From NCBI GenBank assembly GCA_000092065.1, contig CP000582.1: a stretch of 64,000 bases of DNA. The stretch is one strand, 5' to 3'. Numbering within the stretch: position 1 is the stretch's first letter; each line of letters opens with the position of its first letter. Shown here in pieces: positions 4,966 through 54,116 of the stretch. The position numbers and the translations under genes are program-made. The notes beneath the pieces were generated by a model, which saw nothing but the letters and a program-made list of their open reading frames with translations, was not told the origin of the DNA and did no database searches. Source of the stretch: Ostreococcus lucimarinus. Its lineage: Eukaryota.

Positions 4966-6849
4966 CTACACAGTCGTCGCTCCCTCGTTGGTGACGACCT
5001 CTTTTTCTACAAACTCAAGGATATCGTTCGACGTGATGTTGTCCTGAATTGATTTCCACGTCTTTTCGTAAGTGGTGATGAAATTCGGCGTATCTTTATC
5101 CGACCTCGTACGCAAGAAAACCCACGTTTTTTCATTCATATCCCACGTGCACTCGACGATTTTACCATCCAAGCTTTCGAGTGGATCCGTGCGTGTGACA
5201 AAATCGTCCTCGAGGCGGGCGAGCGCGCCGCCTTTTTGACCCACAAAGAGCAAACCTTTATCTCGCGATACGCGCAAGAGAAAGTCGACCGAGTTCAACC
5301 CTGGAAACTTCCACTTGAGCAGTGCTTCGTACGTTTGCGGGACGTACGGCACATTTGAGGGTTGGAAAATCAATCCATCGCTTTCGTGCGACAGGGCGGG
5401 AATGAACTTTTCGATGAATGAGCGCGCAAAATTCAGCGGGAAAAATTCCTTTGTGCGAACAGAAAACGGTTCTTTATGCGCGGCGTAAGCTCCACTCGGA
5501 CCCGCCTGCGCGAGAAACGCCTTTCTCGGTTCGACGACGAACTCACGCACAATGTTCAATCGCTCCAAGAACGGACGTTGCGTCACGCGTTCGCCGTTGA
5601 TGGCCATCAAATCGTACGCTAGATACCGGCGCGTCTGCTTCTTCGTCTGAGGATCGGTGTCGACGACCATCTCGCCATCCATCAACGTACAGTGGTGTAC
5701 GTTGGTTCCAAACTTTTTGTGCGGTAAAGGAAATCGCATTTGCACGCGGCGAATAGCGAATTTTCTATCGATCAAGTACGTGCCATCGCGCATAAGCATT
5801 AATAAATAACGCGTCCCGTCCGCCTTCCACGTCACGCTGTATGGTTCACGTTTCAAGAGCTCCATGTTGTTGCGACTCAGACTCACCGGCTGTGATCCAG
5901 GAAAGTTATCAACGCGTCCTGAGGCCCCATCGTCTGACATGACCGCCCACACGCAAAGCTTTCGAATCTCGTGCGCCATTTCCTCGTACACCTCCTCGCC
6001 GACGACGTCTTCGTGATGCATCGATCCCGCATCACTCTCGACCTCCGCAATCTCCATCGCGCGCTGCAACGCTCTGCGCGTCCCCGGTATCGGTGCTCGA
6101 CTGTGCGCTAACGTCTTCTTATACGTCAAATTCACCCTCGGATCGAACAGATCTCCCGCCGGTATCTTGTCGTCCGTCAACGGCGGCGCGTCGCTCAAAT
6201 CGTCGCTCTTCCACGCCGGCACTTTCGGATCCTTCGTCGTGCTAAACCTCCGTTCGAGATAATAATCAAACAAGCTCTCCAAGTACTCGCTCTTGTATAT
6301 CCCCGGCGGTCGCACTTTCGCGAACTCCGTCACCCACTTATTCAACTCGGGCCAGCCTCGCGCGCGCTGACAATAATGCGTCAACATCGCGCCCGTTCGA
6401 TTAAACCCGTGCGTACAGTGCACCAATATCGTCGGCGCATACCCTTGTCTCGCCTTTTCCTGCCATCCCGGATCGCTCGCCATCTCCGCCGCGCATCTTT
6501 GCACCGCGTACACGAATTCGCTCACCTCCCGCGGCGCCGGCGCGCCGTCCCGTCCCGCGCACCGAATCTTATACACCCTCACCCCGTACTTTTCGAAGTC
6601 GCTCGCGTCGTAATACCTCGACGTGTTCGTGAGATCGATCACCATCGCCACCGCGCGTCCTTTGCTCTGCGCCAGCGCCAGCGCGTCGTCGGGCGTGTAC
6701 CAATCCTCTCTCGGGACGTCGGCGTAGAATTGCTCCCTCAGCGGCGCCTTGGACGCGAGAAACATCCCCGCGAACGGTTCGGACATGCGCGGGCACGCCG
6801 TCCATCCCTCGGGCGTCGCCCACGCGCCGCGCGGGCCGTCGTCGGGCAT
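4966..6849 (-). CDS. bifunctional mRNA capping enzyme (Cys-phosphatase-type RNA 5'-triphosphatase + mRNA guanylyltransferase)
   Basis: True ATG at 6849 on minus strand. N-terminal dual-specificity phosphatase P-loop VHCTHGFNRTG (HCxxGxxR[ST]). C-terminal guanylyltransferase with KxDG nucleotidyl-transferase motif (WKADGTRYLLM) and downstream RFPLPHKKFG / DGLIFQP blocks. Domain order TPase-GTase as in metazoan/plant capping enzymes. Confidence 0.8.
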   Translation of the reverse strand: MPDDGPRGAWATPEGWTACPRMSEPFAGMFLASKAPLREQFYADVPREDWYTPDDALALAQSKGRAVAMVIDLTNTSRYYDASDFEKYGVRVYKIRCAGRDGAPAPREVSEFVYAVQRCAAEMASDPGWQEKARQGYAPTILVHCTHGFNRTGAMLTHYCQRARGWPELNKWVTEFAKVRPPGIYKSEYLESLFDYYLERRFSTTKDPKVPAWKSDDLSDAPPLTDDKIPAGDLFDPRVNLTYKKTLAHSRAPIPGTRRALQRAMEIAEVESDAGSMHHEDVVGEEVYEEMAHEIRKLCVWAVMSDDGASGRVDNFPGSQPVSLSRNNMELLKREPYSVTWKADGTRYLLMLMRDGTYLIDRKFAIRRVQMRFPLPHKKFGTNVHHCTLMDGEMVVDTDPQTKKQTRRYLAYDLMAINGERVTQRPFLERLNIVREFVVEPRKAFLAQAGPSGAYAAHKEPFSVRTKEFFPLNFARSFIEKFIPALSHESDGLIFQPSNVPYVPQTYEALLKWKFPGLNSVDFLLRVSRDKGLLFVGQKGGALARLEDDFVTRTDPLESLDGKIVECTWDMNEKTWVFLRTRSDKDTPNFITTYEKTWKSIQDNITSNDILEFVEKEVVTNEGATTV

Positions 6850-11773: not shown

Positions 11774-14521
11774 CTAACTCGGCGTCGATCGAAGCGTCGA
11801 GGTGACGGCGACGATCAAACGTTCGAGGGAATCCACGGTTTGATCGCTCGCGGCGTCGTCGCCGCTCTTCATCGCGGCGCACGCGTCCGTCATCGTCGTG
11901 GTGTGTCGTCGCGCGATGTCGAGAACTGGGGATTTCAATTCGACCTCGGCGTCGCCGGCGAAGAGCGTTCTGACGGCGTCGGCGGTGCGAAGCATGAATT
12001 CGGCGGCGACGTCCACGTCGACTTCTTCGGGAGATTGTCGAAGAGGCATGTCGTTCCAATCTTCGATCAACGTTCGAAACGACTTACTCATCAATTCGAA
12101 CGCTTCTGCGGCGAATTTACGAGCATCATCGATAGAATCTCTTCGGCGCTCGATTTCGGCTTCGACGATTTCGTGCGCGAGTACCCATCCTGTGAGTGTC
12201 GTCTTCCCGCGCTGCGCGAGCGTTCTCGTCGGCGAAGACGCGCTTCTGTCAAAGAGTCCGCCAAACGTTAACGCGATATAGACTCCGCTCCTCGTAAGGT
12301 CTGCCGCACACAAAGTTTCCGCGACGGCGCGTACGAGAGCGTCGGCGGCGGCGCCGTCGGCGAAACGTCCCAAATGCGCGCTCGGCGACTCGATCGTCGT
12401 TAACGCGCGTTTCGCCAAAGCCACGCGCGTCGCTCCAGGTGTTACTGCGCACGTTGCGTCTATGAACGCAACAGCACATTGGGGTGCGATGCGATATAGC
12501 AAGTGCGTGGTGGCTTCAAACGGGGCGAACGCGACGGTCGCCGGCGCCGGCGTCTCTGACGCGTCGACTCGCGACGCCATGGCGGTGACGAGCTCTTCAA
12601 TCGCGACCTTTGCATCCGATTCATCTTCTTGCGGAAACAATAATGGTTTATCGCCCCACACCGCATCTATCAAGGTTGCGAGCGCGGCGCCGTCGCGAAA
12701 CGCCAGCAACGCGCGCGCGCCGACCCAAGCGTACGCGGGTAAATTCTCTCCGCGCGAAGATTCGAGCTCGCGCACGAGCCCTGAGAGATGAACGTCGTCG
12801 CTGATGACACCGTCCCTTTGAGACGCGCCGCCCGTTGCGCGCAATGCGTCCCAGTCCGTGAGAAGAATATCCCGCGCTTCGTGGACGCTCGCGCTAGCTT
12901 GACGCGAGAACGCTTCGCAATCCGCCGACGCTCGCTCGAGCGTCTCTAAAGCTTCGCGCACGGCAAAGTTCCATCTCGCCGCGGCGACTTCATCAAATCG
13001 ACCGTCGAGCCTCGCCTTGAGAAGGAGCGCCGGCGCGATCGCACACGATGCTCTGACGTCTCTGGAACGCGTCGCCAATCGCGCGTCTCTCTTTGTCCTA
13101 AACGCCTCCGTCGCCGTCTCCACCTCGCGTCGCGCGGTGATTAAAGCGCGAGCGAGAGCCTCCTTCGACGCGCCGTACATCTCTACGTCGGCTAGAACCT
13201 TGTCGATATGCTCCAGGTCGTACAGAGTCGTCGACATCAGTATGGGTTCCACCACTTTCGACAACGCGCTCGGGACGTGCAGCGAACACCGGAACACGGG
13301 CGCGAGCGCGCCCGGCGAGTACGCTCGCGCATACATACCGGCGACGCCTCCGTTGACGAGTTCAAACGCGTGCTCTTGCGAAGAAATCGTCGCGTGCGAT
13401 TCGCTCGCGGCGCGCGGCAATTCAGGCAGCGTCGCGGAATCGACCAACGCGCCCGTGCTCGCGTGAAACACGCGAATCAACCGTCGCTCCGACGCGGCGT
13501 CGAACGAGGCGACCCACAAAAACGCACCGTGTCGCGCGATGCTCATCGCGCGCTCACCCGCGCGCATCTCTTGACCGTCTTCATCCTCCTTCGTCGCCGA
13601 AACGCGCCCGAACGCGCACACCTCCTCCACCGCGTGCGCGACGTCGTCGTCGTCGCGTCGCTCGCCCGGCGCGCCGAGCGCCGGCAGCACCACGAACGCC
13701 CTTTCCGCGTCGACGTCCGCGCACACGAGCGCGCGATCCGGAAACGACACGCTCGTCAACAGCGCCCTCGACGGTCCACTCCCACCATCCATCCCGCCGT
13801 CGCGCGTCGCCCCTCGCGCGTCGACGCGCGCCGTCGCTCGCCGCAATCGACAATTCCACCTATAAAGCACCCCACTTCGCGTCGTCACCCAAAAATCCTC
13901 CCCTCCCGCGCTCACCACCCCCACCAACCCCTCATACGTCGCGCTCGCCACCGTTTCTCCCGCGTTCGCGCTCGCCGCCCCCCCCACCACTCGCACCGCC
14001 ACCCGTCCCGCGTCGCCGTCGCCCGCCGCGCTCGCCGTCGCCGCGTACGTCGTCCCATCGCTCCCCTCGCACGCGCACATCCCGAAGCAGTCCCCGACCC
14101 GCGCGCCGCTTCCCCCCGTCCCATCTCGCGCCGATTTCGTCCCCTCCGCGACGATCGGCGGCGCGCCCGCGTACGGCGGCGTCGTCGTCCCGCGCAGCGC
14201 GCCGCCGCCGTCGCGTCGCCACGCCGCGATCGCGCCGTCCCGCCTCGCCGCGATCGCGCCGTCGCGCGTGCTCGCCAAGCGCGCGCACGGCGACGCACCG
14301 AAAAGCGCGACGTGTCGCGTCGTCCACCCGTCGTCGTCGTCGTCGTCGTCGTCGAGCGTCGCGCGTCGCGTCGATTCGACGCGCCTTTCGAGCGTCGCGA
14401 CGACGCGTCCGCCGTCGCCGGCGCAGACGAGCGCGCGGGCGTCGGCGAGCGCGACGAGGGCGTCGCCGCAGTCCGGCGGCGGGCGACGGCGCGACGCGAC
14501 GGCGTCGACGACGAGCGGCAT
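11774..14521 (-). CDS. large hypothetical protein (915 aa), poly-Asp tract near N-terminus, alpha-helical C-terminal half
   Basis: ATG at 14521 (minus). Normal composition over 2.7 kb, unlike the Arg-rich antisense frame 13208..15472. (GAC)n tract encodes DDDDDDDD. No family recognised; N-terminal part could be beta-propeller-like. Confidence 0.5.
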   Translation of the reverse strand: MPLVVDAVASRRRPPPDCGDALVALADARALVCAGDGGRVVATLERRVESTRRATLDDDDDDDDGWTTRHVALFGASPCARLASTRDGAIAARRDGAIAAWRRDGGGALRGTTTPPYAGAPPIVAEGTKSARDGTGGSGARVGDCFGMCACEGSDGTTYAATASAAGDGDAGRVAVRVVGGAASANAGETVASATYEGLVGVVSAGGEDFWVTTRSGVLYRWNCRLRRATARVDARGATRDGGMDGGSGPSRALLTSVSFPDRALVCADVDAERAFVVLPALGAPGERRDDDDVAHAVEEVCAFGRVSATKEDEDGQEMRAGERAMSIARHGAFLWVASFDAASERRLIRVFHASTGALVDSATLPELPRAASESHATISSQEHAFELVNGGVAGMYARAYSPGALAPVFRCSLHVPSALSKVVEPILMSTTLYDLEHIDKVLADVEMYGASKEALARALITARREVETATEAFRTKRDARLATRSRDVRASCAIAPALLLKARLDGRFDEVAAARWNFAVREALETLERASADCEAFSRQASASVHEARDILLTDWDALRATGGASQRDGVISDDVHLSGLVRELESSRGENLPAYAWVGARALLAFRDGAALATLIDAVWGDKPLLFPQEDESDAKVAIEELVTAMASRVDASETPAPATVAFAPFEATTHLLYRIAPQCAVAFIDATCAVTPGATRVALAKRALTTIESPSAHLGRFADGAAADALVRAVAETLCAADLTRSGVYIALTFGGLFDRSASSPTRTLAQRGKTTLTGWVLAHEIVEAEIERRRDSIDDARKFAAEAFELMSKSFRTLIEDWNDMPLRQSPEEVDVDVAAEFMLRTADAVRTLFAGDAEVELKSPVLDIARRHTTTMTDACAAMKSGDDAASDQTVDSLERLIVAVTSTLRSTPS

Positions 14522-14550
14522 TCGCGTCGCGCGGTGGCGTCGGGGCGAAA

Positions 14551-15029
14551 TATCTTTCGTCAGACTGTTTGCGCATACGAGGTGGTTTGGTACGTGTCGT
14601 CACACTGTTTGCGCATACGAGGTGGTTTGGTACGTGTCGTCACACTGTTTGCGCATACGAGGTGGTTTGGTACGTGTCGTCACACTGTTTGCGCATACGA
14701 GGTGGTTTGGTACGTGTCGTCACACTGTTTGCGCATACGAGGTGGTTTGGTACGTGTCGTCATACTGTTTGCGCATACGAGGTGGTTTGGTACATGTCGT
14801 CACACTGTTTGCGCATACGAGGTGGTTTGGTACGTGTCGTCACACTGTTTGCGCATACGAGGTGGTTTGGTACGTGTCGTCACACTGTTTGCGCATACGA
14901 GGTGGTTTGGTACGTGTCGTCATACTGTTTGCGCATACGAGGTGGTTTGGTACATGTCGTCACACTGTTTGCGCATACGAGGTGGTTTGGTACATGTCAT
15001 CACACTGTTTGCGCATACGAGGTGGTTTG
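14551..15029. repeat. 40-bp minisatellite, about 12 near-identical tandem copies (unit TCACACTGTTTGCGCATACGAGGTGGTTTGGTACGTGTCG)
   Basis: Read directly: exact 40-nt periodicity from about 14551 to 15029. Only two variable positions (CACACTG/CATACTG and TACGTGT/TACATGT); first and last copies degenerate. Unit is AT-richer than surrounding DNA. Lies between divergent ATGs at 14521 (minus) and 15306 (plus). Confidence 0.9.
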
Positions 15030-15305: not shown

Positions 15306-16172
15306 ATGTCGACGCGCGCGCGCGCGGCGGGACGAGCGAGCGCGGCGCGGCGGGACGACGCGGGGACGACGCGCGCGGCGACGACGCTCGCGCGCTTCGT
15401 CGTTCGCGACGACGGCGCGCGGCGCGCGGAGGAGGAACGCGCGCGGAAACGGGCGGAGATGGTGCGGTATAGACGCGCGCTGGACGCGCAGATGGCGGAG
15501 ATGGCGCGAGGACGGGCGCGGGAGGCGGCGCGGGAGGCGAGCGAGCGGGACGCGCGGCGGCGGCGAGACGGCGGCGAGACGGCGAACCGGGAGACGGCGG
15601 AGGAGCTGGCGCGGCGGCGGGACGAGTACGTCGCCGCGCTGGATAGACAGGTGGCGGAGCGGCGCGAACGCGAGAGGAAAAGGCGCGAGGAGGAGGAGAG
15701 ACGGGACAGAGAGGAAAACGAGCGCATTCGGCGACACGTCGAAGAGGAGCGAGCGATTTTACGCGAGAAACGCGCGATGATGGCCGCGCGGGCGGCCGCG
15801 CTCGGTGACGATGAGGGCGATGACGACGATAAGACGCGAAGAAGACGAGCGAATAGGATCACGCACTCGCCGCCGGCGTCGCCGCGACCGGCTTCGACTT
15901 CGGCGTCTCCGCGCGCGCCGCCGTCCTTCGTCGCGCCGCGCGCGGCCAGCGTCGACGCCGACGCTGGATACGTCCCGATTCCCGAATTTCCCGAGTTTCC
16001 CGAGTTTTCGCAACCGGCGACGACGACGGCGTCGTCGAACGAGCGAACACCGCTGACCGACGCCGCGGTGGCGGATTTGACCAACGTCATTCGCGAGCTC
16101 GTCGTCGAGCAGCGCGAACTGAAATCTCGCCTCGCGCGCGCCGAAGCCGCGCTGCGCGCGCGAATCGAGTGA
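15306..16172 (+). CDS. charged coiled-coil protein (Arg/Glu-rich, trichoplein/TPH-like heptads)
   Basis: ATG at 15306. Long ER-rich helical stretch (RRRDEYVAALDRQVAERRERERKRREEEERRDREENERIRRHVEEER); PEFPEFPEF motif; C-terminal coiled coil. Opposite-strand ORF 15203..16207 is Ser/Arg-rich and judged antisense artefact. Confidence 0.4.
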   Translation: MSTRARAAGRASAARRDDAGTTRAATTLARFVVRDDGARRAEEERARKRAEMVRYRRALDAQMAEMARGRAREAAREASERDARRRRDGGETANRETAEELARRRDEYVAALDRQVAERRERERKRREEEERRDREENERIRRHVEEERAILREKRAMMAARAAALGDDEGDDDDKTRRRRANRITHSPPASPRPASTSASPRAPPSFVAPRAASVDADAGYVPIPEFPEFPEFSQPATTTASSNERTPLTDAAVADLTNVIRELVVEQRELKSRLARAEAALRARIE

Positions 16173-36206: not shown

Positions 36207-36332
36207 CCCGTCGATTCGCGTCGGTCGTCGATCGCACCGCGCGGTTCTCGCGCGCGCGTCGCGGTGCGACGCCGACGAATGGCGCGAGCGGGACAAACTG
36301 CAAAAAGCGTCCCGCGACACTCGACGGCGCGC

Positions 36333-37466
36333 ATGCGCGCGTCCGCGCGTCCGCGCGCGATCGTCGCGCGCGCGTCCAGCGCGTCGTTCGAGGATAAGTT
36401 GGCGCGCGCGCGCGGGCTGTTCGGCGTGGACTCCATCGACGCGCACGCGTCGCCGAAATCCGCGGGGTTTCGCGAGCGCGCGAGTCACGGCGTCGAGAAG
36501 ACGCGCGACGGCGCGCTGCGGCTGGTGAGCGTGCGCGCCGCGACGGGTGCGCTGGTGACGTCGGACGCGACGTCGCGCGACGACGCGGCGGGCGTCGAGC
36601 GGGCGAGGGAAATCTTCCTGAGGGTCGCGAACGACGACGCGTGGACGACGACGCGAGCGCGCGTGACGGCGGCGAATTTTTTAACGAATCGAACGTCGGA
36701 TGAGATCGTGATCGCGTGCACGCTGTCGGCGGAGAGCGGCGATGGCGACGACGCGACGTGGATGGAGTTCGCGGAGGCGATGCGAGCGCTCGACGACGCC
36801 GTCGTCGGGTGCGTTCGAAAGCGTAAGAAGACGCCGAAGCTCGTCGTCGGGCGCGATTACGTGACGGAGACCACGCGCTTGGTCGACGGTCGTTCGGTGG
36901 TTTTTAAACACGTCGAGGGGAGCTTTTCAAATCCGAACGGTGGCGTCGCCGAACTCACGGCGAATCATCTCGTTCGGATTTGCGCGGATATCGCCGGCCC
37001 GAAGACGAAATTCATCGAGCTGTACGCCGGTTGCGGAAATCACACGTGTTGCATGGCGCCGCAGTTTCCCGGCGGCGCGTTCGCGGTGGAGATTGATCCG
37101 GTTTTGGTGGAAGCGGCGCGAGAAAACTTTGCGCGCAACGGCGTTCGAGCGGAAATCGTGTGCGAACGCGCCGAGGATTGGATCGCGTCTCGCGAAAGTC
37201 CCACGAACGACCGCGACGTCGTCCTGCTCGTCGATCCACCGCGCGGTGGGTTGGACGCGCGCACGCTCGACGTCGTCACGCGCGAATTCGACGACGTCAT
37301 TTACGTCGCGTGTGACTGCGAATCACTCAAGCGAGACATCGACGACGAGCGCGTGGGATTCGCGGCGAGAGGGTTCGAACTGACATCGCTCGCGTGTTTC
37401 GACCACGCGCCGACGTCGCCGCGATGGATCGAAACCGTGGGGGTTTTTAAGAGGCGAGAGGCGTAG
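36333..37466 (+). CDS. TrmA/TRM2-family tRNA (uracil-5)-methyltransferase
   Basis: Track ORF 35160..37466 starts at GTG with about 390 junk codons; ATG at 36333 gives MRASARPRAIVARASS... (alternative 36279). SAM-MTase motifs FIELYAGCGNHT, VEIDPVLVEAARENFARNG, LLVDPPRGGLD, VIYVACDCESL; C-terminal nucleophile region FELTSLACFDHAPTSPRWIETVGVF (bacterial DMFPHTAHVESV equivalent). Last 18 codons and stop lie in copy 1 of the 160-bp tandem repeat. Confidence 0.75.
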   Translation: MRASARPRAIVARASSASFEDKLARARGLFGVDSIDAHASPKSAGFRERASHGVEKTRDGALRLVSVRAATGALVTSDATSRDDAAGVERAREIFLRVANDDAWTTTRARVTAANFLTNRTSDEIVIACTLSAESGDGDDATWMEFAEAMRALDDAVVGCVRKRKKTPKLVVGRDYVTETTRLVDGRSVVFKHVEGSFSNPNGGVAELTANHLVRICADIAGPKTKFIELYAGCGNHTCCMAPQFPGGAFAVEIDPVLVEAARENFARNGVRAEIVCERAEDWIASRESPTNDRDVVLLVDPPRGGLDARTLDVVTREFDDVIYVACDCESLKRDIDDERVGFAARGFELTSLACFDHAPTSPRWIETVGVFKRREA

Positions 37467-37891
37467 GAATAGACCGAGTAGCCGTAGCGAAAGACTTAAT
37501 AGCTATACACAATGCACAAATCACGTGATGACGTCGTCGTCGCGACTCGTGTCGGCGGCGTTTCGATTAAAGACGTCGCCGCGATGGATCGAAACCGTGG
37601 GGGTTTTTAAGAGGCGAGAGGCGTAGGAGTAGACCGAGTAGCCGTAGCGAAAGACTTAATAGCTATACACAATGCACAAATCACGTGATGACGTCGTCGT
37701 CGCGACTCGTGTCGGCGGCGTTTCGATTAAAGACGTCGCCGCGATGGATCGAAACCGTGGGGGTTTTTAAGAGGCGAGAGGCGTAGGAGTAGACCGAGTA
37801 GCCGTAGCGAAAGACTTAATAGCTATACACAATGCACAAATCACGTGATGACGTCGTCGTCGCGACTCGTGTCGGCGGCGTTTCGATTAAA
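37411..37891. repeat. 160-bp tandem repeat, about 3 copies, spanning the convergent 3' ends of two genes
   Basis: Read directly: unit GCGATGGATCGAAACCGTGGGGGTTTTTAAGAGGCGAGAGGCGTAGGA[A/G]TAGACCGAGTAGCCGTAGCGAAAGACTTAATAGCTATACACAATGCACAAATCACGTGATGACGTCGTCGTCGCGACTCGTGTCGGCGGCGTTTCGATTAAAGACGTCGCC repeats with period 160 at about 37421, 37581 and 37741; copies differ by 1 nt. Confidence 0.85.
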
Positions 37892-38746
37892 TCCCACCGC
37901 ATCCATCACCCCCGCGTGCGCGTTCAACGCCTCGGCCATCTCGCGATTGCTCGGTTCGTCGACCCACTCTTTCACGACCTCGGATCCGTCGTCGTTCCAC
38001 AAATACCATCTCCCCGGCCACCTTCGCACGAGCGTTCCCTCCGCGCCGGCCGCGGATCTCGTTCGACGACACGCGTACACCTTCTCCCACGCGTCCGTCG
38101 TCAAACACGCTCTCGCCGCCTTCTTCAACCCAAACTCCCACGGCTGTCCCACCTCCTCGCCTCGCCCCGTCCAAAACGCGTTCACCGCGACGACGATTTT
38201 CGACTCCACCTCGCCGTGCTCTCCCGCCAACAGTTTCAAAAAGTACCCGAACGTCACGTCGCTCACGTGCGTCACCACCACCGCGAACGCTTCGTCGCTC
38301 GCGTCGTTCGCGCGCAGGCTCCACAGTCCCACGCCCTCGGCGTCGCGGTCGAGCCGCCCGTGATACTCGCTCGCGTACCCGTCGAACGCGTCCCGCTCGA
38401 GCAGCGCCCGCGTCGCGCGAAACCGCTGCGCCATCCCGCCCGACCAATCCGCGGCTTGTCCGTGCAGGCCGAGGTAGACGACGTCGTCCGTCCCGACGTC
38501 GATCGACGGCAGCGGGAGCTCGACGCGCGCGCGTCGAGGCGCGGCGTCGGCGTCGCGGAGCGCGCGAAACGTCGCGCGCGCGTCCCGCGCGGCGTCCGCG
38601 CACGTCCGAGGCGGTGGCGCGCGGGACGACGCGACGATCGCGCGACGCGCGGGCGCGCGGGCGTGCGCGACGATCGCGCGACGCGCGGGCGCGCGCGCGA
38701 CGCCGCGCGGGACGCGCGCGCGCGGCGACGACGCGCGGCGCGCCAT
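37841..38746 (-). CDS. hypothetical protein (301 aa) with Arg/Ala-rich presequence
   Basis: ATG at 38746 (minus). N-terminus contains a direct duplication RAPARRAIVA x2 from a 34-bp DNA repeat. Globular-looking C-terminal region (FAVVVTHVSDVTFGYFLKLLAGEHG..., WEFGLKKAARACLTTDAW) with no recognised family. Last 16 codons and stop are encoded inside copy 3 of the 160-bp repeat. Confidence 0.45.
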   Translation of the reverse strand: MARRASSPRARVPRGVARAPARRAIVAHARAPARRAIVASSRAPPPRTCADAARDARATFRALRDADAAPRRARVELPLPSIDVGTDDVVYLGLHGQAADWSGGMAQRFRATRALLERDAFDGYASEYHGRLDRDAEGVGLWSLRANDASDEAFAVVVTHVSDVTFGYFLKLLAGEHGEVESKIVVAVNAFWTGRGEEVGQPWEFGLKKAARACLTTDAWEKVYACRRTRSAAGAEGTLVRRWPGRWYLWNDDGSEVVKEWVDEPSNREMAEALNAHAGVMDAVGFNRNAADTSRDDDVIT

Positions 38747-53722: not shown

Positions 53723-54116
53723 AATCGATCGCGCGTTCGTGTCGATCGCGCCGTCCGCGACGCGTCGCCGAGTGGCGCGACGCCGCGCGCGTCGCGCCGT
53801 CTTTCGCGCGTCGTCTCAACCCTAGGCCAGGGTCGCCGTCGCCGGCGTCGTCGTCGTCGTCCGCGCCCGAGCGCGCAGGCTGGACAAAACGCGCGCGATG
53901 GTTTTTATCTCATGGGTCTACATTTCACTGAATACGTAGAAAACAAAACGACATTCGCATGTGTATTACATACACATTTTGTTGCACGCGCGTGTAATGA
54001 TCACGGGTCACGACTCAAGAGTATACATGTACGTATGGGTAAACAGTGACGATGCGTCGTCCGTCCCGACGGACCGACGCCCCGCACACCGACGCGCGCC
54101 GACGGTCGACCGCGCG

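Follow-up and report, generated by a model that had tools for sequence, protein, structure and literature searches.

A copy-number-polymorphic minisatellite between two divergent genes of Ostreococcus lucimarinus CCE9901, probably multiplied from a conserved promoter motif

A 40-bp sequence repeated about 12 times lies between two divergently oriented genes of Ostreococcus lucimarinus, and the question raised by this locus is whether the array forms part of the promoters that it separates or is sequence that happened to multiply there. The genomes of Ostreococcus are among the most compact of eukaryotes, with very short promoters and few described cis-elements, and that of O. lucimarinus measures 13 Mb and is gene-dense. 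The stretch of DNA analysed here (64,000 nucleotides, hereafter the window) is eukaryotic and gene-dense, with genes for EF3, an mRNA capping enzyme, a CLC channel, a Bin3 methyltransferase and a Myb/SANT protein among the 45 called by a codon-usage-based gene caller trained on the window. The predicted capping enzyme was identical at 591 of 591 positions to XP_001416488.1 of O. lucimarinus CCE9901, and the window therefore represents the reference genome of that strain.

The structure of the array was determined by TRF, pattern search and a table of the individual units. TRF revealed a minisatellite with a period of 40, 11.8 copies, 97% matches and no indels (score 897; Table 1), in agreement with the exact 40-nt periodicity and roughly 12 copies given in the preliminary description. 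The consensus 40-mer, allowing up to 3 mismatches, had 11 matches in the 64-kb window, all of them within the array and none elsewhere, and 0 in 100 shuffles. The claim that the unit has only two variable sites was nearly right, the actual number being three (positions 3, 7 and 38): unit 1 carries C7G, units 6 and 10 carry C7T plus G38A, unit 11 carries G38A and the truncated unit 12 carries G3A, while units 2-5 and 7-9 show no change from the consensus. All three positions fall outside an 18-bp core (unit positions 8-25), which is invariant in 12 of 12 copies spaced 40 bp apart (12 exact matches vs 0.03 expected). Units 3-6 and 7-10 form two identical 160-bp blocks, each consisting of three consensus units followed by one C7T/G38A variant; these blocks are the trace of a 4-unit block duplication that was part of the expansion. 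The array is also AT-richer than its surroundings, as had been noted, with a GC content of 0.51 (0.53 for the unit) compared to 0.63 across the window and 0.70 in the flanking genes.

Table 1. Positions of the array, its internal features, the flanking genes and related motifs in the window.
Feature	Position	Strand	Remarks
Minisatellite, 11.8 head-to-tail copies of TCGTCACACTGTTTGCGCATACGAGGTGGTTTGGTACGTG	14557..15029	+	TRF, pattern search, unit table
18-bp core ACTGTTTGCGCATACGAG, first of 12 identical copies	14564..14581	+	Last copy at 15004..15021
Two identical 160-bp higher-order blocks	14637..14796 and 14797..14956 (span 14637..14956)	+	Unit table
AAATATCT, identical to the evening-element 8-mer	14548..14555	+	Not part of the repeat unit; 8 nt ahead of the first core copy
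915-aa gene, lineage-restricted, without Pfam domain	11774..14521	-	ATG 42 bp from the first core copy
288-aa coiled-coil gene	15306..16172	+	ATG 285 bp past the last core copy
AT-rich near-palindrome TTTGATTTAATTAATTCAAA	15188..15207	.	About 100 bp upstream of the 288-aa ATG
Second window locus of the 15-bp motif (ACTGTTTACCCATAC)	54033..54047	-	Motif search

Gene calls placed the array, which is non-coding, between the divergent ATGs at 14521 (minus strand) and 15306 (plus strand), that is, in a promoter or 5' intergenic position. The preliminary description of an array filling a bidirectional intergenic region was thus borne out, as were the distances that it gave, the array lying 36 bp from the first of these start codons and 277 bp before the second. 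The intergenic region measures 784 bp, compared to a median of 165 bp for the divergent intergenic regions of the window. The 915-aa protein, called as 914 or 932 aa in wild contigs, has only nine related protein clusters in 5.8 billion. The 288-aa protein was found in numerous metagenomes from the ocean, and the gene order is kept in ten long contigs (L001-L010). The near-palindrome upstream of the 288-aa gene is probably its core-promoter region, and a TTTGA..TTCAAA palindrome was found in the sister species too. On the other side, a (CGT)n microsatellite at 14329..14373, in the 5' part of the 915-aa gene, encodes an aspartate run, and two k=31 Logan contigs from CCE9901-type runs (L201 and L202) both break exactly at this tract.

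Three plus-strand open reading frames cross the array, which they can do only because none of the plus-strand phases of the unit contains a stop codon. The codon-usage score of the plus-strand frames through the array was -0.10 per codon, compared to +0.10 for the 915-aa gene; these frames are therefore not genes, as the preliminary description had supposed in treating them as artefacts, and a repeat-encoded protein was ruled out. Other identities considered were a structured RNA, hairpin or cruciform, rejected since the single strand is less structured than its shuffles (z = +1.69), and a phage or viral origin, rejected on the eukaryotic gene content and the absence of any blastn match in the phage collection.

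Comparison with wild populations revealed that the length of the array is not fixed. Complete arrays were recovered in 14 marine-metagenome contigs of the same species, including four (L017, L018, L025 and L046) recovered by searching the metagenome collection with the 18-bp core. One of these contigs (L010) holds 0.8 copies, ten (L001-L007, L009, L018 and L046) hold 1.8 and three (L008, L017 and L025) hold 2.8, compared to 11.8 in the window; none of the 14 complete wild arrays exceeds 2.8 copies, short-read assemblies being unable to display long arrays. The copy number is thus polymorphic in nature, as had been suspected. In L001 and L006, which are 99.4-99.6% identical to the window over about 20 kb, the array is the sole large difference. 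The wild arrays are 33-113 bp long vs k-mers of 127-141 nt used by the assemblers, and they hold distinct SNP haplotypes, for example GAGGCGG vs GAGGTGG in the first or second copy; being shorter than the k-mers and differing in haplotype, they are therefore real alleles and not collapsed repeats. The array is a copy-number-polymorphic minisatellite expanded in CCE9901, and the expansion is restricted to the reference strain, or was at any rate absent from every complete wild contig. Two further wild contigs (L045 and L059) end inside the array, so that longer wild alleles may exist, and the array of L045 carries G38A at its last junction, the same variant as in the window. The 12-copy state is known from a single cultured strain and may be neutral or may even have been acquired in culture. 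In practice, the array provides a simple PCR marker separating CCE9901 from wild O. lucimarinus.

An error in the reference itself, by which the array would have been over-expanded or mis-joined during assembly, is very improbable. Such an error would agree with the ceiling of 2.8 copies in the independent assemblies recovered and with the behaviour of the k=31 Logan contigs of CCE9901-type runs, which stop at the (CGT)n tract, some 200 bp short of the array. The ordered internal variant pattern of the 473-bp array argues against an artefact, as does the finished Sanger assembly of CCE9901, with reads that would span most of the array; so do the collinearity of the flanks with wild contigs and the variant that L045 shares with the window.

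Some wild contigs depart from the reference. In three estuarine contigs (L044, 1..253; L052, 1..891; L024, 1..93), a segment of 52% GC takes the place of the DNA that otherwise follows on the right-hand side of the array; this segment had no match in the window, at other loci or in viral contigs, and its 164-aa ORF had no Pfam match. The junction in L044 and L052 joins GTCGTCAC to CAATTGCGCCTTTCGAGTCCCTCGTG, while that in L024 consists of about three repeats of a 16-bp hybrid unit (CTGTTTGCGAGTCCCC); at its beginning, the foreign segment resembles a degenerate motif copy. The presence of this segment beside the array suggests ectopic recombination or insertion at the array. A different change occurs at about 18670..20867 of L006 (also IMG/VR contig L061), a 531-kb JGI contig that is 99.5% collinear with the window up to there and then switches abruptly to DNA of 33-39% GC with a gene for the large subunit of a lambda-type terminase (GpA). 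The contig is probably a chimera of Ostreococcus and phage DNA, and part of it is listed as viral in IMG/VR.

The invariance of the core within the array is matched by its conservation between species. The core motif comprises 15-18 bp, ACTGTTT[G/A]C[G/C]CATAC(GAG). In the sister species, which has an orthologue of 81% identity to the 915-aa protein, a single 18/18 copy is found at the same spot, 30 bp from the ATG, and the remaining intergenic DNA has diverged and is not confidently alignable. The core motif was not found in orthologues at 52% identity. The 8-mer AAATATCT is likewise conserved in the sister species, 8 nt ahead of the single core copy. It occurs once per strand in the 64-kb window, and the same 8-nt spacing to the motif recurs in inverted form at an unrelated locus (L050:10236), which makes two loci in all. 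This sequence is the evening element, which is reported to be enriched in dusk-phased promoters of O. tauri (PMC12216367), is bound by CCA1 in the clock model and is a functional promoter motif in Ostreococcus (PMC3130137, PMC12216367).

The motif is also dispersed beyond this locus. The exact 18-mer was detected in 47 metagenome contigs: 11 represent the array locus or its sister-species orthologue, 8 are of the introner type treated below, 9 are unrelated (about the number expected by chance) and 2, with a GC content of 0.55, carry the motif within long ORFs; the remaining 17 are high-GC, green-alga-type, Ostreococcus-like contigs that provide at least nine other contexts (about 10). The genes adjoining the motif sites encode UMP kinase, GFAT, a TM7S3-like membrane protein, tRNase Z, seryl-tRNA synthetase, histone H4, a GATA factor and several unknown proteins, and have no common theme. 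Within the window, the 15-mer ACTGTTT[G/A]C[G/C]C[A/G]TA[C/G] matches only the array and the site at 54033..54047, located in the divergent intergenic region of a 344-aa gene (minus strand) and the tRNase Z gene (plus strand), and no further 15-mer match was found in the window at up to 2 mismatches, vs 0.7 expected. A third site (ACTGATTGCGCGTAC) lies just past the left end of the window, in L201, again in a divergent region, so that about 70 kb of contiguous CCE9901-type DNA holds three motif loci and no degenerate extras. The core, given as TGTTTGCGCATACG in the preliminary description with the suggestion to test other promoters for it, does recur in other promoters, namely in the 18-mer contexts and at these two additional sites. 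In viral contigs, the 15-mer had 106 and 34 matches, which an estimate made without a control puts at about chance level.

The placement of these sites is strongly biased. Among the independent loci at which both neighbouring genes could be called, seven of eight lie in divergent intergenic regions, compared to 34% expected from intergenic length (P = 0.003), and a ninth locus found later, that in L201, is likewise divergent. The distance from the motif to the flanking ATG ranges from 30 to about 650 bp. A second case of tandem multiplication was found in the divergent promoter of the gene for a plastid-type UMP kinase, where two contigs of one taxon (L022:2182..2230 and L035:126..176) carry two motif copies at a 31-bp period and the orthologous promoter of another taxon (L050) carries one. 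Each duplicated copy in L022 and L035 is preceded by GCGGTCGGTCGC; as a candidate second motif beside the core at some loci, GCGGTCGGTCGC was rejected because it is not enriched in the window (5 matches vs 4.7 expected). No Rfam families were detected in the window or in 15 motif-bearing loci, and the motif is therefore not a promoter of recognisable snRNA-type genes. The literature searched held no mention of the motif sequence, and we know of no named motif that it matches with confidence. Taken together, the conservation of the motif, its dispersal, its bias to divergent promoters and its spacing from the evening element indicate a genuine cis-element of bidirectional promoters, with a putative function assigned by conservation and position only. 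The lack of a common theme among the adjoining genes and the wide range of distances to the ATG weigh against such a function.

The two contigs with the motif inside long ORFs (L021 and L056, GC 0.55) present a separate picture: four motif copies or close variants (e.g., L056:5858..5875) lie within ORFs of 1,117-1,439 aa, and one copy is preceded by partial repeats (ACTGTTTcgACTGTTTGCaattagACTGTTTGCGCATACGAG).

The preliminary description had alternatively proposed a satellite family marking a specific chromosomal context. This was not supported, since the 40-bp unit occurs at one locus only and the dispersed part is the single 15-18-bp motif; a dispersed satellite family was likewise rejected, the 40-mer being absent elsewhere in the window and all metagenome contigs with the 40-bp junction coming from the array locus. 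A broader version, in which the motif would mark a satellite, a centromere or a replication origin, can draw on the sharp definition of the motif and on its frequency of about one per 20-30 kb in the 70 kb of CCE9901-type DNA, which is reminiscent of origin spacing. Given that the 40-bp unit is restricted to the array locus and that the sites are single motifs within short divergent promoters, with ordinary genes adjoining and a setting neither gene-poor nor satellite-like, this role is hardly credible.

A further group of motif-bearing sequences proved to be of another nature. In ocean-metagenome contigs with a GC content of 0.59-0.60 (L016, L027, L032, L037 and others; L039 and L047 also carry the family), the motif occurs several times per 10 kb and always within elements of 75-82 nt (e.g., L037:4622..4697), with the consensus GGTA[A/C]GTATTTCCCA..CCACATTCCGCCG-ACTG[A/T]TTGCCCATAC[A/G]AG-ACTGACA..polyY..CAG. 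Removal of the elements in silico restored an open reading frame over the resulting junction in 14 of 15 cases, and they are therefore repeated spliceosomal introns of the introner type. The motif of this family is located directly 5' of the branch point ACTGAC, the Mamiellales-type branch point being GACTGAC (PMC3879977, PMC4540971). The 18-bp core of the array matches the core of the intron family at 16-18 of 18 positions, with two intron copies identical at 18/18, and the similarity is confined to the 15-18-bp core. The host of these introns encodes axonemal dynein and is therefore a flagellate, not Ostreococcus; it is probably a Micromonas-like picoalga.

The array thus shares its core with this intron family. 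Comparable elements are the introners of Micromonas (PMC4540971, PMC3879977, PMC4815162), for which partial copies in intergenic or UTR regions and single motifs in multiple copies are reported from M. pusilla (PMC3879977, PMC4815162). The array differs from introners in lying between genes, without branch point or 3' splice site, and in belonging to a set of Ostreococcus sites that have only the motif in common. Around the Ostreococcus motif sites, neither splice sites (5' or 3') nor branch points occurred consistently, and the sites shared no flanking sequence beyond the motif itself. An assignment of the array and the other Ostreococcus sites to introners or 5'-UTR introns was rejected on these grounds and on their intergenic position. 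To our knowledge, no introners have been reported in Ostreococcus.

The same comparison raises the alternative that the Ostreococcus motif copies are single-motif remnants of an introner-like mobile element and that the array is amplified junk. In addition to the introns of the flagellate, in which the 15-18-mer is the conserved core, and to the partial, multiplied introner motifs of M. pusilla, this explanation is in line with the foreign 52% GC segment that abuts the array in L044, L052 and L024 with an end like a degenerate motif copy. It is unlikely, given the lack of splice signals and of the common flanks that transposon copies would have, and given that the 1.8-copy allele is a local duplication with a 7-bp filler and not an insertion. 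In particular, the position of the site is conserved between two species with diverged flanks, and this positional conservation, together with the strong bias to divergent promoters, argues for function over relic. A tentative reading that would join both sets of sequences, and one more doubtful than not, is that the 15-bp core is an undescribed Mamiellophyceae-wide cis-element, a candidate factor site marking divergent promoters and sometimes forming a module with the evening element, around which an introner family was built. If so, introners would have captured or arisen from a promoter motif, or Ostreococcus promoters would carry domesticated introner relics, and the CCE9901 array would be a natural 12-fold multimer of the element. 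The identity between the motif and the introner core, if genome-wide, would bear on the origin of introners or on the host factor that they exploit.

As to the array itself, it is probably a promoter VNTR of O. lucimarinus CCE9901, in which a conserved promoter cis-element was multiplied locally, with a regulatory effect that may be supposed by comparison with other promoter repeats. The ancestral state would be a single 15-18-bp motif, ACTGTTTGCGCATAC(GAG), placed 8 nt from the evening element and 30-42 bp upstream of the 915-aa ATG, as kept in the sister species and in the one wild contig of O. lucimarinus type with 0.8 copies. The 1.8-copy allele, the commonest in the ocean, is not derivable by simple tandem duplication, its sequence showing a duplicated 33-bp stretch with a 7-bp filler (GTACGTG) at the join; it may thus represent the second step. 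Replication slippage or unequal exchange would then have led to 2.8 copies in some wild lineages and to 11.8 in CCE9901, including the duplication of the 160-bp block.

In the promoter VNTR so envisaged, the motif would be a putative site for a sequence-specific factor acting in divergent promoters. The expanded array would raise the number of putative sites from 2 to 12, phased at 40 bp (about four helical turns), and push the two core promoters about 400 bp further apart, and the transcription of one or both flanking genes (915 and 288 aa) would be expected to depend on the copy number. Should the 915-aa transcript begin on the far side of the array, an upstream ATG with an 18-codon uORF would in addition come with every unit. 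The effect on expression is proposed because of the analogy with yeast, where tandem repeats in promoters change expression levels (Vinces et al., 2009, as cited in PMC3887541). In view of the divergent setting, the non-coding nature of the array, its polymorphism and the recurrence of the core, the copy-number-dependent regulation suggested in the preliminary description may be considered a reasonable hypothesis.

The main rival is a neutral, strain-private expansion, in which a minisatellite with no effect on either gene grew by slippage or unequal exchange within the lineage of CCE9901, perhaps during culture; the core may in that case be a functional site while the extra copies are irrelevant. 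The restriction of the expansion to one strain, the predominance of 1.8 copies in the wild population, which suggests no drive to high copy number, and the block-duplication pattern, typical of mutational minisatellite dynamics, are all in line with neutrality. The core, in contrast, is invariant in all 12 copies and is a conserved promoter element, and the addition of 400 bp and 10 putative sites 40 bp from a start codon would be unlikely to be wholly silent where the median divergent region measures 165 bp. A neutral origin is therefore possible and is the less favoured of the two.

The promoter VNTR interpretation places the array in a known class of sequences. Head-to-tail repeats in promoters whose copy number varies between strains or individuals have been described in yeast and as VNTRs elsewhere, human examples being MAOA-uVNTR and INS-VNTR; these change how many factor sites are present and how far apart promoter elements stand, and arise by slippage or unequal exchange. 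The unstable promoter repeats of S. cerevisiae are mostly short and AT-rich and act via nucleosome exclusion, whereas the array has a 40-bp unit with a GC content of 0.53 and a specific conserved 15-18-bp motif, its effect on expression being presumed from the analogy. Homotypic clusters of transcription factor sites are comparable in having identical copies of a conserved, here putative, cis-element at a fixed phasing (40 bp), and the UMP kinase promoter with its 31-bp period offers a second natural cluster of two copies; clusters of 12 perfect copies, however, are normally engineered and not natural, and the factor of the array is only putative. The array resembles classical minisatellites (units of 10-100 bp) in unit size, copy identity, higher-order block duplication, polymorphism and CpG-transition variants, and differs from them in its location in a 13-Mb gene-dense genome and in having been seeded on a functional-looking promoter motif and not on anonymous sequence. 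Promoter minisatellites are an already known kind, and any novelty may lie in the motif itself and in its match to the introner core. The states with 1, 2, 3 and 12 copies beside an evening element constitute a natural allelic series for site number and spacing in a bidirectional promoter, and Ostreococcus is transformable.

The array is not the only long tandem repeat of the window. The assertion that the genome is otherwise almost devoid of repeats is contradicted by a second one at 37412..37891, with a 160-bp unit in 3.0 copies that are 99% identical, AT-richer and without the core motif. It sits in the convergent 3' region of the genes at 36279..37466 (plus strand) and 37841..38434 (minus strand), and its period equals the 160-bp higher-order block of the array, possibly by coincidence. 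Elsewhere in the window, the capping enzyme gene at 4966..6849 (minus strand) differs from its NCBI model: XP_001416488.1 (591 aa) drops 36 codons as an intron, and the stretch so modelled stays open in the window and in the metagenome gene calls, which give a protein of 627 aa.
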